Assembly (NCBI GenBank): GCA_050013255.1
Contig: JBEKFP010000003.1
Location: forward strand, 192,001-256,000
DNA from: Candidatus Bathyarchaeia archaeon
Lineage (GTDB): Archaea > Thermoproteota > Bathyarchaeia > 40CM-2-53-6
Direction of reading: 5' to 3'
DNA: 64,000 nucleotides
Shown: positions 30,447-47,075 of the stretch, in pieces
How positions within the stretch are numbered: the stretch's first letter is position 1
Layout of the letters: the number at the start of each line of letters is the position of its first letter
The notes under the pieces: model-generated
Told to the model about the DNA's origin: nothing
The model's database searches: none
The model's input: the letters and a program-made list of their open reading frames with translations, nothing else
Translations under genes and position numbers: made by a program

Positions 30447-30460
30447 GGTATGCTGGTGCG
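30447..30460 (+). repeat. Junction E: GGTATGCTGGTGCG (putative TSD, copy 1 of 3)
   Basis: Identical at 36065 and 47044; flanked by GAGTGCG and CGCACACACAC. Confidence 0.85.
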
Positions 30461-30963
30461 CGCACACACACTGCCTCATCGTCGAGCTGAAGGAACCACG
30501 CCCCCGCCGTCCGTAACTAACTAATGACCCCTCTCTGAAAAAGGGCATGAAGAAGTACTAACTCTAACGTCGCCTCTAGTCTGCGTTTCCACGTATCGTG
30601 AATTTCTTCGAGTGAGTTTGTCAGTCTACGACCTGGACCGTAACACTTTTCGTTGATAATGATTTAGGAGCCTTCTGATTAGGGCCAAGTCTTGTTCAAT
30701 TCTTGGTAGATTCTGTTTTAGAATTGGTTCCGTCATCGCCCTGGCCGGGGCTCGGGACTTGTTAGCAATTGGCACAGAGTCAGGTTCTTTCTCAAAAGTT
30801 TTCTGGCCTGAAGGTCACTTATTCAACTGTAGAGAGGCCTGGTAGGCGAGGCAGGCGCGTTGACCCTCGCCTGCGAGATACATTCTGTATATTGGCAACC
30901 ATTAAACCGACTTGACGTTGTACTCTGTTCTATACCGATACGAAGGAAGGGTGATTTCAACCA

Positions 30964-31164
30964 TTGAGCCACCAGTGTAAATTGTGTCACCCACCTAAGA
31001 TATTTCGATCAATCGACCGACTGCATGAACATCATTGGACGACTCATCGACGATGGTGCTGCAATGTTTGTCATCATTTGAGTCGACTTCACTCAGGATT
31101 TCATGGTTGTGCAGTCTGTGGTTGCAGATACTCGAAGAAACAGCAAGAGCGCCTTCGTGACTAG
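30964..31164 (+). CDS. Small Cys/His-rich (C2H2-like zinc finger) protein
   Basis: CxxC...HxxxxH, further CxxC pairs; GGTGA RBS-like sequence upstream of TTG. Confidence 0.45.
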   Translation: MSHQCKLCHPPKIFRSIDRLHEHHWTTHRRWCCNVCHHLSRLHSGFHGCAVCGCRYSKKQQERLRD

Positions 31165-31667
31165 AACTCTTTCAGGGCTTCGGAAGTTGCTTATTCGAGT
31201 GTGAGTGCTATGTTGTATCTGAGAGGTGACTAATGTATGGCAAAGCAGAGTAGGGGAGCTAAGAAAGCGTGGACGGCTGCTAGAGATAAGAAGGTGTCGA
31301 AAGCACGCGAGAAGAAGAAGGAACGAAAAGCCGCCCTTTCCACGTATCACTAGGAACGCTGTTCTGACGTAGCGGGACGCTTGTGAGGATCACGGGAATA
31401 GCCTATTCAAGGCAGCAATCATTCCTATCATGGTGTCTGCTCGTCAAAGGTGACTTGGATGAGAACTTGCCCTAAGTGCGGTCACGAGATAAATGGAAGA
31501 GTTTGTGTTGTTAAAGACTGTACTTGTGACTGTTACTATGGTTTGAAACAACCCTAAGCCGATGAGAATTTTGAACCGTCGATCTCGTGTGTGATTTCAT
31601 GATTTTGTGATTTTGTCTACGTGTGGGGGGGTAAGGGTGGTTGGGTCTGGGAGAATGTGTTGTTGTG

Positions 31668-31681
31668 CGCACCATTAGACA
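31668..31681 (-). repeat. Junction F (inverted 14-mer TGTCTAATGGTGCG)
   Basis: + strand TGTGTTGTTGTG|CGCACCATTAGACA; right-hand end degenerate. Confidence 0.7.
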
Positions 31682-31878
31682 ATGCCTACTACTCAAAGCC
31701 ATCCAGGAAAGAGCAACCTGACAATTTGCCGCCAGAGGAAGAAGGTGAAGCCCAGAAACAATATTGTCACAATTGTAAATGATACATTCATTCGCTTGTA
31801 TTCAGCCCGCTCACGGAGAAAGCCTCTATGTGAAATTTTAATTGTACACACAGTAAACGATCATAGGTCTGTGATTTT

Positions 31879-32736
31879 ATGAGTCTTCCGAATTTTCCCG
31901 AAAAGATGGAAGGTAGCCTTTTCTTCAGGGAAATAATGCCTCAGTTTCTTCCTGAATACAATCCGTTTAAACTTGCTATGCTTGGTTTGATTGTTGAAAA
32001 AAAAGGTAAAACCAAGATATATGAAGCATTAAGGTTTAGTCTTCGTAAGATTCAATGGGTTAAGTTGATGGGCTCAAAAGCCATCCATTTGGAAGAGGAA
32101 CTACTAAAGGCGGTCGAGCCAAACAGTTTTGTTTTTGACCCGTTAAGACAAACTGCGCATTCGTTGTGTGTAACCGATTGTCTAATTCATACGAAATCGG
32201 CATTAGATTCAATGGCTGTTTTTCTCACTGACTTGCTTGGATTAGACCAGACGGGTGGAGACAGAGATTTTAAGAAACTTGGATTCAGGGAGTCAGTAAG
32301 TCAAAAAGATGCTTTTCTCAAACACGAAATCAAGAAACTTGAACCTTGGTTCTTAGAATTGCAGGGAGTAAGAGATGAATGGATTCATATCAAGGCAATC
32401 GAATCTCTATCTGTTCATGGAAAAAGCGATGTTGGAATGCTGCCTATTCCGAGAAATATCTACCTTAGTGCTGAAGAACAAAGAAACATACCAATTAATT
32501 CAGAGAATTATTGGTCAACAAAAGATTTTGTTGAACATCATTATGCTCAACTTGCAGAACTATTCGGTGAGATTGTTGACCGTAGTATTCAAATTGAAAA
32601 CCTGGACTTAGCGGAACCTGTTACTGTTCCTGAACACTTTATGAATAATCTGACAATGTTTCCTACACATTCCACCGAGAACATGACTCTCCAAAAAATG
32701 AGGGTGTACGTTCCTAAATCTGTGGTCGATTGGTGA
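31879..32736 (+). CDS. Putative HEPN-domain protein (Cthe_2314-like)
   Basis: KSALDSMA motif and RxxxxH (RDEWIH); visibly AT-rich relative to host genes. Confidence 0.65.
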   Translation: MSLPNFPEKMEGSLFFREIMPQFLPEYNPFKLAMLGLIVEKKGKTKIYEALRFSLRKIQWVKLMGSKAIHLEEELLKAVEPNSFVFDPLRQTAHSLCVTDCLIHTKSALDSMAVFLTDLLGLDQTGGDRDFKKLGFRESVSQKDAFLKHEIKKLEPWFLELQGVRDEWIHIKAIESLSVHGKSDVGMLPIPRNIYLSAEEQRNIPINSENYWSTKDFVEHHYAQLAELFGEIVDRSIQIENLDLAEPVTVPEHFMNNLTMFPTHSTENMTLQKMRVYVPKSVVDW

Positions 32737-32896
32737 CCTGCAGGAAAACTGATTCTTGGGGAATGGATTGTTGTAAGTCGCACTCACACGATTGAGCCAT
32801 GGCATCACCCATTGATGCTGAGATTACCTTTTTCATCGATGAGACCATGGTTGGCTAGAACTATGCTGGGTAAGGTTTTCGTTTCTGGGGGGGGTG

Positions 32897-45121: not shown

Positions 45122-45135
45122 CGCACCAACGATAC
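45122..45135 (-). repeat. Junction K (inverted 14-mer GTATCGTTGGTGCG)
   Basis: + strand GCGGCGGCGGGGGCGG|CGCACCAACGATAC|CACACACAC. Confidence 0.85.
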
Positions 45136-45160
45136 CACACACACTTTTCAAACGAACGCA

Positions 45161-45192
45161 GTCCGATGGTCCGGCGACCGCATCAGTGATAC
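45161..45192 (-). repeat. Junction K2: degenerate tRNA-Gly 3'-end mimic + 14-mer
   Basis: + strand GTCCGATGGT-CCGGCGACCGCATCA (13/15 to tRNA CCGGCGGCCGCACCA), then GTGATAC|TACAGAC. Confidence 0.55.
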
Positions 45193-45211
45193 TACAGACT
45201 AAGCGCGACTT

Positions 45212-46675
45212 CTATGTTGCTAGGCCACACTGCTTCCTGAGTTTCTCCATTAGTTCTCGGTATCGAGGGTCGGCCCTTGCCTTCGCGCAGAGAGGTGAGT
45301 ACATCACGAACAGGGAAATTATCGCATGCTCTTCAAGGGCCTTGTTCACGTACTGGAAGTATGAGTCGAGGTCTCCGAGCGCGTGGTAGACAAACCCCAT
45401 GTAGTTGAAGCCTATTGGACCCACCTTGGCATTCTCAATCTTCTTGATTGCGAGGAGTGCCGTATCTCTGTCGCCTTCCATGGCCGCGACGACCCCTCCC
45501 ATCCAAGCGACCCTAGAATTGGTGGGATCGAGCTTCTCAAACTTCGCAAGGAGCTCCTTAGCCTTCTCAAGTTCCCCTTTGGCTAGGTAGTACTCCGTCA
45601 TTCCCCTGTAGGTCCACGCAGGGGCAATCTGCTCGTACTTCTTCCAGTGCTCCAACGCCTCCTGCTCCCTCCCCGTATAGAGATACGCTAGCCCCACAAG
45701 CCAGGTGAACCGCGGCCTCACGGGGTCTAGGCGGTATGCTGTCTCGATCTGCCTAACCATCTCCCCCTGGTTTCCCTTGATTCCCTCCACCTCAAACAGT
45801 ATCCAGTAGGCGTCTGGGAGACTCGGGTTAAGCTCCAAAGCCTTCCTCGCCTCCGCCTCCGAACCTAAGACATCGTCCTCATCGAAGAGCAAAACAGAAA
45901 GCACCGCGTGGGCCTCCGCAAGGTTCGAGTCGAGATTAAGGGCACGTTCCAATAATTGCCTCGCAGTCGAATGAGAGACATCAAACGGTTCCTTTCCGAC
46001 GTTGGAAAGATAACTGTGGCACTCTGCCGCGCCGACGTATGCCCTCGCGAACTTGGGATCCAGTTCGATGGCTTTCTCAAAGAGGCTGATAGCCCGCTCT
46101 GTTGTATCTATGCTTACTTCCCGTAGTAGTTCTCTGCCTTGCAAGAAGTACGTGTACGCCTCAGTGTTCTCGGTAGGCTTCTTCTGTAGGGTTCGCTTCT
46201 CAGAGTCGAGTAGCTGGGTCTTGAGCTCTCCCGCCACCTTCTCAGCTATCTCACTCTGAACGGCGAAGATATCGTCTAAGTTCTTGTCATAGTGGGAGGA
46301 CCACACGTGTTCTTCCGTTCCCGCGTTGATTAGCTGAACCGTGACCCTGACCCGGTTACCTGCCTTCCTTACACTGCCTTCGACCACCGACCCGACGCTG
46401 AGTTCCTTTGCGATTTCGGAGACATTCTTCTCCTTCTTCTTGTAATTCATCACTGACGTCCGAGCTATGACCTTCAAACTCTTCACCTGAGAAAGCCTGT
46501 CAATCAACTCCTCCGTCATGCCGTCCGCGAAGTACTCGTCGTTAGGGTCGGGGCTCATGTTCTTCATGGGCAAAACGGCAATCCGGAGCTTGTCTAGCGT
46601 CTGCTGTGCCGTGGAGAACGCGGGGGGAATGAAGCTCTTCGACCGGGCGAGGTCGGCTGGCTGCAAATGATTCAC
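45212..46675 (-). CDS. TolB-N-like + TPR repeat protein (type seen with class III cyclases; no cyclase domain)
   Basis: IAVLP..NMS.DP..EYFADGMTEELI, EGSVRKAGNRVRVTVQLI, multiple A.ELDP TPRs. Confidence 0.85.
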   Translation of the reverse strand: MNHLQPADLARSKSFIPPAFSTAQQTLDKLRIAVLPMKNMSPDPNDEYFADGMTEELIDRLSQVKSLKVIARTSVMNYKKKEKNVSEIAKELSVGSVVEGSVRKAGNRVRVTVQLINAGTEEHVWSSHYDKNLDDIFAVQSEIAEKVAGELKTQLLDSEKRTLQKKPTENTEAYTYFLQGRELLREVSIDTTERAISLFEKAIELDPKFARAYVGAAECHSYLSNVGKEPFDVSHSTARQLLERALNLDSNLAEAHAVLSVLLFDEDDVLGSEAEARKALELNPSLPDAYWILFEVEGIKGNQGEMVRQIETAYRLDPVRPRFTWLVGLAYLYTGREQEALEHWKKYEQIAPAWTYRGMTEYYLAKGELEKAKELLAKFEKLDPTNSRVAWMGGVVAAMEGDRDTALLAIKKIENAKVGPIGFNYMGFVYHALGDLDSYFQYVNKALEEHAIISLFVMYSPLCAKARADPRYRELMEKLRKQCGLAT

Positions 46676-47043
46676 GATTACCTGACTGCGTATCTAGCTA
46701 AGCTTGCCGAGCCGGTTGTTATAGAGCCTTTCCTCAACTCGCACGCGAGAGACTAGGTGGTTCAGCAGTCACTTCACATTCGTATTGTGACGAATCATCG
46801 TTCCGTATTCTCTCGTTCTTTAGGTCTTGTTTCTTGTAGGAAATCGTATGGTATTATTGGTCAGCATGTTTGTATTGGCATTGTCGTACGTGACGTCCAA
46901 GCGTCATGTTTTATGATTCATAGAACATCAGGCTACCGCCACTAAGAGAATGTTGTGCGAGCGAAGCGAGCACCAAGCTAACCAAGTAAGCGAGCGAAGT
47001 GATCTTCAACAGGTTCCAACTTCGGGCGGCGGCGGCGGGGGCG

Positions 47044-47075
47044 GGTATGCTGGTGCGGGCGAGCGGATTTGAACT
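47044..47075 (+). repeat. Junction L: GGTATGCTGGTGCG (putative TSD, copy 3 of 3) + T-loop mimic
   Basis: GGCGGCGGCGGGGGCG|GGTATGCTGGTGCG|GGCGAGCGGA-TTTGAACT. Confidence 0.85.

Follow-up and report, generated by a model that had tools for sequence, protein, structure and literature searches.

A 64,000-nucleotide (nt) stretch of a Candidatus Bathyarchaeia genome (assembly GCA_050013255.1, contig JBEKFP010000003.1, positions 192,001 to 256,000 of the forward strand; hereafter the window, in whose coordinates positions are given unless a contig is named) contains three identical copies of one 14-mer that delimit two adjoining multi-gene blocks, the second of which carries a casposase, the Cas1 enzyme of casposons. 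We interpret this arrangement as successive casposase integrations of blocks that were composite on arrival, a reading to which we assign a probability of roughly 0.7. Its parts differ in strength: the three copies are very probably the target-site duplications (TSDs) of two sequential casposase insertions into one target, and the evidence leans modestly towards blocks that had been assembled into trains of cassettes before they landed. The core finding is a new instance of a known behaviour, as tandem casposons with a shared duplication have been published from Methanosarcina; new here are the lack of a family B DNA polymerase (PolB), the use of two end families (CACAC and CCGCC) and composite blocks with unpaired internal junctions.

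Two probable insertions at one target

The outer 14-mer, GGTATGCTGGTGCG (T1), belongs to a target that reads N7 + TGGTGCG, or 5′-CGCACCA + N7 on the tRNA strand. As reported in an earlier interpretation made from the letters of this DNA (the sequence-only reading), T1 is present in three exact copies, at 30447, 36065 and 47044; the window holds no near-copies with up to two mismatches and three matches were reached in 0 of 100 shuffles. The ends given in that reading for the two intervals are likewise correct: block 1 starts with CGCACACACAC and ends with GTGTGTGTG, and block 2 has inverted arms of 17 nt (36079–36095 and 47028–47044) that are 100% complementary. Its ambiguity of about 1 nt at the boundary between TSD and terminal inverted repeat is real, the right arm overlapping the first base of the third 14-mer, and a G directly before all three copies makes the repeat readable as 15 bp.

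We read the T1 repeats as casposase TSDs because of their length of 14 bp, their 5′-CGCA start on the tRNA strand and the inverted ends that lie immediately within them. The TSD of the Methanosarcina mazei casposon is also 14 bp, begins with 5′-CGCA and lies at the 3′ end of a tRNA-Leu gene (PMC6977970, PMC4779613), while the Aciduliprofundum boonei casposase has a minimal target made up of the TSD segment and, as a ‘leader’, the T-loop region beside it (PMC5137440). Two successive insertions at one target, as first proposed, gain further support from the position of the leader-like sequence, which follows the last copy only, and from the recurrence of the layout. Identical direct 14-mers within 30 kb form eight groups in this genome (three triples and five pairs, the T1 group included); in 8 of 8 the last copy abuts a T-loop-like leader (…AATTTGAACC…), and the earlier copies lead into element ends. 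The succession target–element–target–element–target–leader is found in two more triples of this genome and in one of a relative (G011), where a triple of the exact T1 14-mer has the leader at its end. Clean single insertions with 14-bp TSDs occur in three relatives: G004 has a Cas1 element with CCGCC ends (duplication GGTCAGCTGGTGCG), G014 one with CACAC ends (GGTATAGTGGTGCG) and G017 a 2.9-kb derivative, and the duplicated unit has the same length in the seven other groups of this genome.

The leader-like sequence beyond the third copy, site L, resembles the 3′ end of a tRNA. In G004, the closest relative, a tRNA-like gene (contig C8, 12026–12135) has a 3′ end that agrees with T1 and site L together (47043–47075) in 29 of 32 positions; this gene has the 14-mer GGTATGCTGTTGCG, now hosts another array and is orthologous in its 5′ part to 54082–54178 of the window. 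We rejected site L as a true tRNA, since neither ARAGORN nor Rfam calls one and the T-stem is unpaired. An empty site reconstructed by removing both blocks and two T1 copies agrees in 37 of 46 aligned positions with a site on contig 2 (279774–279819) that has a single T1 copy and a leader; this alignment scores 45, whereas shuffles score 16.5 ± 2.4. The sequence fits a target of the tRNA 3′-end type with a T-loop-like leader, a role that site L would have by likeness.

Under this reading, the casposase would make staggered cuts 14 bp apart at the target, and repair would duplicate the 14-mer; only the leader-adjacent copy would stay a full target, on which the next element would land. On this rule, we place block 1 first and block 2 second. 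Block 1, with CACAC ends, was probably moved in trans by a CACAC-type casposon on contig 1, and block 2, with CCGCC ends and its own casposase, would have followed.

A casposon lacking PolB in block 2

Block 2 (36079–47043; Table 1) can be divided into a standard casposon unit (36079–45121) and an add-on (45122–47043) because the left end of the casposon forms an imperfect inverted pair of about 32 nt with the inner right end (45090–45121), because these ends have subterminal motifs in common with a casposon in G004 and with an end at 770468 on contig 1, the inner right end also with the outer right end of the block, and because the G004 version, a 7.1-kb relative with a clean TSD, is devoid of the TPR gene carried by the add-on, and of PolB. 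The outer right end shares a 29-nt subterminal motif with 44984–45012, and likewise the terminal GGCGGCGGCGGGGGCGG.

Judged by its sequence, the casposase gene is intact. The best relative of its product with a solved structure is the M. mazei casposase 6OPM (E = 8e-77, residues 4–395), compared with 2e-22 for the best CRISPR Cas1, and the residues that align with the published catalytic E162, H232 and E247, at a presumed numbering offset, are conserved. HNH genes such as the one beside it are frequent casposon accessories and are present in Methanosarcina casposon maps (PMC4779613). Between 38053 and 38353, adjoining the HNH gene and overlapping several short open reading frames (ORFs), the casposon also contains five to six tandem 45-bp repeats that are 63–76% identical.

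Pfam detected no PolB in 36079–47043, which has no ORF longer than 487 amino acids (aa), and all three PolB genes of this genome are on contig 2, at a distance from the arrays. The genome has two Cas1 genes, each inside a TSD-bounded element, one CCGCC-ended and the other CACAC-ended. The second of these elements (contig 1, 1330273–1346555; 16.3 kb), with its casposase gene at 1333.4–1334.6 kb, has CACAC-type inverted ends of about 27 nt, a 14-bp duplication of its own and no PolB; its cargo is of a defence type, with AIPR, DNA methylase and DndB-like genes.

Composite structure of the two blocks

Both blocks are divided by internal 14-mers. Those of block 1, four in number, are each unique in this genome and separate segments A to E, whose GC content is uneven (0.41–0.50 from segment to segment). 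Four internal junctions had been described as inverted: those at 31668, 32897 and 45122 do carry an exact CGCACCA, and the one at 45179 reads CGCATCA GTGATAC, with one mismatch. Across this genome, 11 intervals lie between identical 14-mers, three of them simple (0.6–2.0 kb) and eight composite, and the eight composite blocks contain 17 internal junction-like sites, several inverted, of which 0 of 17 are paired.

For segments B, D and E, neither a second copy in this genome nor a match in 30 relatives was found. Because they have left no duplication, have no other copy and differ in GC in steps from 0.41 to 0.50, we consider that they most likely arrived as part of the block. Other units that are bounded exactly at junctions stand singly elsewhere, namely segment A (G004 and G014), a 795-bp unit of a block on contig 1 (G032) and the TPR cassette (contig 1). 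Parts of segment A occur as independent units with different neighbours, 30462–31368 at 94% identity on contig C8 of G004 and 30895–31593 at 96% on contig C50 of G014, and the ORF of segment C alone has an 88% paralogue in a different context on contig 1 (720236–721093).

The small case of one multi-member unit at two loci, and the only such case, is the TPR cassette with its landing pad. The TPR gene has a paralogue (79%) on contig 1, within a 2.4-kb element that is bounded by TSDs, and the two loci (45179 and contig 1, 1352968) have a 43-nt end module and the inner 14-mer in common while their outer 14-mers differ, so that an internal 14-mer can travel with its own element. On this comparison, the 14-mer at 45179 is a spare landing pad that travels with the TPR cassette and not a past target. 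The claim that internal 14-mers keep a chronological log of earlier targets therefore finds no support here, the order being unreadable as well. The related proposal of pre-assembled multi-cassette trains fares better: the lack of paired internal junctions, the single-copy state of segments B, D and E and the shared inner 14-mer of the TPR paralogues speak for it, and the failure of any block or adjacency to recur speaks against it.

Such trains could arise where tandem neighbours at an earlier target are mobilized jointly through their two outermost compatible ends, the 14-mer between them going along unpaired. If a train X–[Ta]–Y were inserted flipped, its internal 14-mer would be inverted, with one member core-side on both flanks and the last member N7-side on both flanks. 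Block 1 could then be a flipped train of A, J6, B, J7 and C, joined at J8 to a direct train of D, J9 and E. Block 2 may be a flipped two-member train that reads, on the minus strand, Y (end 47043–46904, TPR gene, pad and GTGTGTGTG end), J11 and the 9.0-kb casposon (45121–36079), and it would have moved through its own two CCGCC ends.

The sequence-only reading had also suggested, as a check, matching each N7 to the 7 nt downstream of tRNA-Gly CCA in related genomes. Compared with the flanks of the real tRNA genes of this genome that end in CGCACCA, the internal N7 halves gave 0 matches; among all N7s only the outer one (GGTATGC) has a counterpart beside a tRNA-like gene of a relative, in its flank. 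The N7 halves are non-arbitrary and follow a consensus: about 96 junction-like sites in this genome, falling in 15 clusters, include GGTCTAA 13 times, GGTCAGC seven times and GGTATGC five times, and the sequences of the internal 14-mers fit the target repertoire of the genus. Tracing them to source sites yielded none: the 14-mer of J6 has five copies in relatives (3 of 5 adjoining leaders), that of J8 two and that of J11 one exact copy, at an occupied pad in G016, all in junction contexts with unrelated flanks, and J7 and J9 have none, the J7 14-mer being absent from the 22 other genomes of the genus.

Alternative explanations and opposing evidence

Several observations weigh against our account. 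Neither block, nor any cassette adjacency, has a second copy in this genome or 34 relatives, as searched by blastn of the region against its own genome, by junction-centred blast of all 311 TGGTGCG sites and in sets of 31 and 23 genomes, and no genome with one block only was found among the relatives searched. Strains with a single 14-mer copy or a single block were to be looked for under the sequence-only reading, and none appeared; the sole syntenic relative, G004, has no clean 14-mer and is without the whole 19.3-kb island. Its contig C8, with flanks that are 91–94% identical, lacks 27767–47103, site L included, and joins 27766 to 47104 through 73 unrelated bases. The local match to site L there is borderline (score 20; shuffle mean 13.1, maximum 20), a weak T-loop-like remnant at most. 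Because the whole island is gone and not one block, this locus says nothing on either block, nor does it show that site L is ancestral to the chromosome. A genus-wide search with 47058–49320 returned no second close syntenic locus. No junction motif marks where the island starts on the left (27766/27767), and the left end of segment B is not a recognizable inverted end. Elsewhere, leader-proximal 14-mers are often unpaired (J1–J4 in the window and the array in G004), and because so many are, processes beyond simple insertion, such as truncation or other rearrangement, act on the arrays. The order of insertion and the mobilization in trans draw on published work on other casposases.

Of the alternatives, the one closest to our interpretation holds that two simple elements landed and that the blocks became composite later, through insertions into internal pads or recombination at TGGTGCG or 14-mer homology. 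Landing pads made of a 14-mer, a mimic and a GTGTG end do exist within elements (45136–45192 and its paralogue), the roughly 96 similar junctions could recombine, and the many partnerless leader-proximal 14-mers make plain that arrays have been rearranged or truncated. Insertion into an internal pad would, however, leave a direct pair of 14-mers, which none of the 17 internal junctions has; this genome contains no donor copy from which segments B, D and E could derive; and the outer duplications and 17-bp ends are perfect, hence the blocks are young. We regard assembly after landing as unlikely. An integron-like or dif-module-like system, in which a tyrosine or serine recombinase swaps circular cassettes at TGGTGCG and N7 is a cassette-specific arm, would account for the invariant core beside a variable 7 nt, for the imperfect inverted repeat of about 28 nt that GTGTGTG and CACACAC form around the 14-mer and for gene-sized cassettes in both orientations. 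This is highly improbable, as the full 14-mer and not the core alone is duplicated around single elements (eight groups here and three relatives), none of the three tyrosine recombinase genes of the genome is at an array, the ORFs between 28 and 50 kb include no recombinase gene and the Cas1 genes lie within elements. Moreover, the segment A end that meets the core in this genome meets the N7 side in G004, which means that the N7 is not the cassette's; we had considered it as part of the cassette end and rejected it on this ground.

It is scarcely credible that the T1 copies are paralogous landing pads of common descent brought close together, or a chance recurrence of a frequent motif. T1 is indeed a common target word, with five copies in this genome and 44 exact copies in 14 of 23 genomes of the genus (the reversed control gives 0), but its N7 is found at only 2 of the other 93 junction sites of this genome, which puts the triple far beyond chance; landing pads have a T-loop-like mimic after them, which here holds for the third copy only, the other two leading directly into element ends; inverted ends lie exactly inside each interval; and polarity is the same in 8 of 8 groups. 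Architecture and polarity exclude chance as the source of the triple. Successive casposase integration of composite blocks remains the best explanation of the whole.

Table 1 Features of the two blocks and their target, in window coordinates (strand as +, − or none).
Feature	Position	Strand	Description
T1 copy 1	30447–30460	+	Exact match; oldest, leader-distal under the proposed order; CGCACACACAC end of block 1 directly after
Block 1	30461–36064	.	5.6-kb composite; CACAC...GTGTG outer ends; segments A–E with four unpaired 14-mers between
Segment A	30461–31667	.	No long ORF; small zinc-finger and basic ORFs only
Junction J6	31668–31681	−	Inverted; minus strand TGTCTAATGGTGCG
Segment B	31682–32896	.	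285-aa ORF 31879–32736, family unassigned; right end GGGGGGGGTG, the reverse complement of a CACCCCCCCC end
Junction J7	32897–32910	−	Inverted; TTATAGCTGGTGCG
Segment C	32911–34065	.	287-aa ORF 33059–33922; N7 side of the junctions towards the segment on both flanks
Junction J8	34066–34079	+	Direct; GGTTTAGTGGTGCG
Segment D	34080–35229	.	EamA-family transporter gene between CACACACAC and GTGTGTGTG ends
EamA-family transporter gene	34198–35112	−	Pfam EamA, E 2e-37
Junction J9	35230–35243	+	Direct; ACTGCGCTGGTGCG; unique in the genus sample
Segment E	35244–36064	.	SAM-dependent methyltransferase gene 35310–36026 (Pfam Methyltransf_25, E 2e-16); end GTGTGTGTG
T1 copy 2	36065–36078	+	Exact match; common to both blocks, between GTGTGTGTG end and CCGCC end
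CCGCC-type casposon, standard unit	36079–45121	+	9.0 kb; modular ends of about 180 nt; no PolB gene; largest ORF Cas1
HNH endonuclease gene	38400–38897	−	Pfam HNH_3, E 2e-15
Casposase (Cas1) gene	39179–40393	+	404 aa; Pfam Cas_Cas1, E 1e-52
TIR-domain protein gene	40395–41159	+	Pfam TIR_2, E 3e-19; PADLOC ThsB-like, E 1e-10; start 1 nt past the cas1 stop
Junction J11	45122–45135	−	Inverted; GTATCGTTGGTGCG; core side against the inner right end of the casposon
Carried landing pad of TPR cassette	45136–45192	−	CACACACAC end, degenerate T-loop-like mimic and the 14-mer at 45179
TPR-repeat protein gene	45212–46675	−	Pfam TPR families; cargo gene of the add-on, the second member in block 2
Outer right end of block 2	46904–47043	+	Second, diverged CCGCC-type casposon end; end presumably used in the last insertion; abuts T1 copy 3
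T1 copy 3	47044–47057	+	Exact match; leader-proximal, presumably still a functional target
Site L	47058–47081	−	Leader-like tRNA 3′-end fragment, acceptor 3′ strand to T-loop; TTCAAAT motif
Copy of tRNA-Gly(UCC) 3′ end	47087–47113	−	27 nt including the 7-nt downstream flank; 26/27 versus 49300–49326; adjoins site L
tRNA-Gly(UCC) gene	49307–49401	−	Rfam tRNA, 48 bits; non-canonical intron position; encoded CCA

Relation to known systems

The proposed descent of CRISPR adaptation from casposon integration finds textbook support in casposons arranged in tandem at one site, and the polymerase gene is the defining gene of casposons. In Methanosarcina, two casposons with only a shared duplication between them have been read as repeated use of the target (PMC4779613), and leader-proximal tandem stacking was predicted from target anatomy (PMC5137440). 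The elements described here share with the family 2 casposons (MetMaz and the tandem pairs of Methanosarcina sp. 2.H.T.1A.3 and 2.H.A.1B.4) and with AciBoo-C1 of A. boonei a Cas1-family casposase, terminal inverted repeats, an HNH gene and a 14-bp 5′-CGCA duplication that, by its sequence, lies at a tRNA-type 3′ end beside a T-loop-like ‘leader’, on which integration may depend here as well. As in the Methanosarcina tandem pairs, the elements are set apart only by the shared duplication, and element ends flank the middle copy at 36065 on both sides. The M. mazei casposon end, 5′-TATATCCC, matches one end type of this genome (…ATATCCCC).

The differences from family 2 casposons are nonetheless considerable. 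The family B polymerase is missing from the block 2 element, the second Cas1 element and the relative in G004; one target serves two end families; the majority of insertions are small cassettes of cargo that lack Cas1; what lies between duplications is a string of cassettes whose internal junctions are unpaired and in part inverted; and the targets are mostly short tRNA-end mimics on the elements themselves and not tRNA genes.

Composite transposons of the Tn10/Tn5 type and Tn7 islands at attTn7 offer a parallel, in that any two compatible ends move the intervening DNA, the duplication surrounds the whole composite and an island is built by repeated use of one site; here, by contrast, the enzyme is Cas1 and not a DDE transposase, relic targets join the members and insertion would be polarized by the leader. 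Bacterial and archaeal integron arrays likewise hold gene-sized, promoter-poor cassettes at one entry point with the newest nearest to it, but the present arrays have no IntI and no attC, and their junctions are duplicated 14-bp targets with inverted ends in both orientations. With CRISPR arrays they would have in common a Cas1 enzyme acting at a leader beside a duplicated unit and polarized head-to-tail addition, whereas the ‘repeat’ here is 14 bp, the ‘spacers’ are genes of 0.6–16 kb with ends of their own, the order would be scrambled by re-mobilization and there is no Cas2, effector or other cas gene.

We tentatively propose, at somewhat less than even odds, that polymerase-less casposases of this Bathyarchaeota genus run a system of cassette stacking in which cargo genes with minimal CACAC or CCGCC ends accumulate at leader-marked 14-bp targets and re-mobilized trains carry old targets and spare pads. 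If true, these would be Cas1-built, integron-like gene arrays and a living intermediate between a transposon and a leader–repeat array. Ordinary gene cassettes, singly or in strings, appear to be moved by this same chemistry of Cas1 although the casposon-defining polymerase is lacking, and repeated leader-side landing followed by re-mobilization would be a simple route to ordered multi-unit Cas1 arrays. Confirmation would provide a testable natural model of the transition from transposon to array, and a new way for archaeal genomes to gather transporter, methyltransferase and defence-like genes.

Neighbouring and genus-wide observations

To the left of block 1 (29456–30446) lie four more junctions, J1–J4, which all combine a GTGTGTG end with a 14-mer and a T-loop-like mimic; modules of mimic and GTGTGTG, 45–47 nt long, set two of them apart, with a MarC gene between, and none of the four 14-mers has a partner copy nearby. 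That of J1 (ATACTAGTGGTGCG, at 29463) recurs exactly at 63235–63248, 33.8 kb away and within an ORF (62957–63451), where it has neither a GTGTG end nor T-loop-like context; a chance copy is unlikely (about 5e-4 per 14-mer). Within segment A, 30952–31366 holds small ORFs for a Cys/His-rich 66-aa and a Lys-rich 38-aa product, and the surrounding stretches are multicopy and 84–98% conserved throughout the genus, with 90% conservation in G030, which belongs to another family.

Next to site L, the 27-nt tRNA-Gly copies at 47087–47113 and 49300–49326 bracket a 2.2-kb segment with HTH/ArsR-like and AHSA1-family genes; its counterpart in G004 (L011, 1268–3486) is 91% identical with a degenerate left repeat, and the segment looks like an older integration at this tRNA. 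The anticodon loop of the tRNA-Gly(UCC), CUUCCAA, is seen in the identical G004 alignment. In G004 (contig C8, L011), a 2.7-kb insertion (3470–6228) sits inside the tRNA-Gly 3′ end with a 14-bp repeat, TGGTGCGGCCGCCG, in a different register of the same tRNA end, and GCCGCC(A/G)AGAACC ends like those of this insertion are found in our genome at 287304 on contig 2. Further along the window, 54041–54178 is tRNA-like on the minus strand, its first 23 nt being the 5′ half of tRNA-Gly, although neither Rfam nor ARAGORN calls it; the 3′ part is unlike that of the G004 orthologue, which has a T1-like target and a cassette array.

Within 257237–259503 of contig 1 of this genome, inverted copies of GGTCAGCTGGTGCG flank a 620-bp element, and the mimics on either side of it face outwards; it adjoins a normal TSD-bounded 1.6-kb element, and the simple insertion rule fails there. 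Ends of the form …TGTAATATCCCC stand right before the 14-mer at 716091 and 254429 on contig 1 and at 744705 on contig 2; they match the M. mazei casposon end given above and suggest that this genome has a third family of ends.

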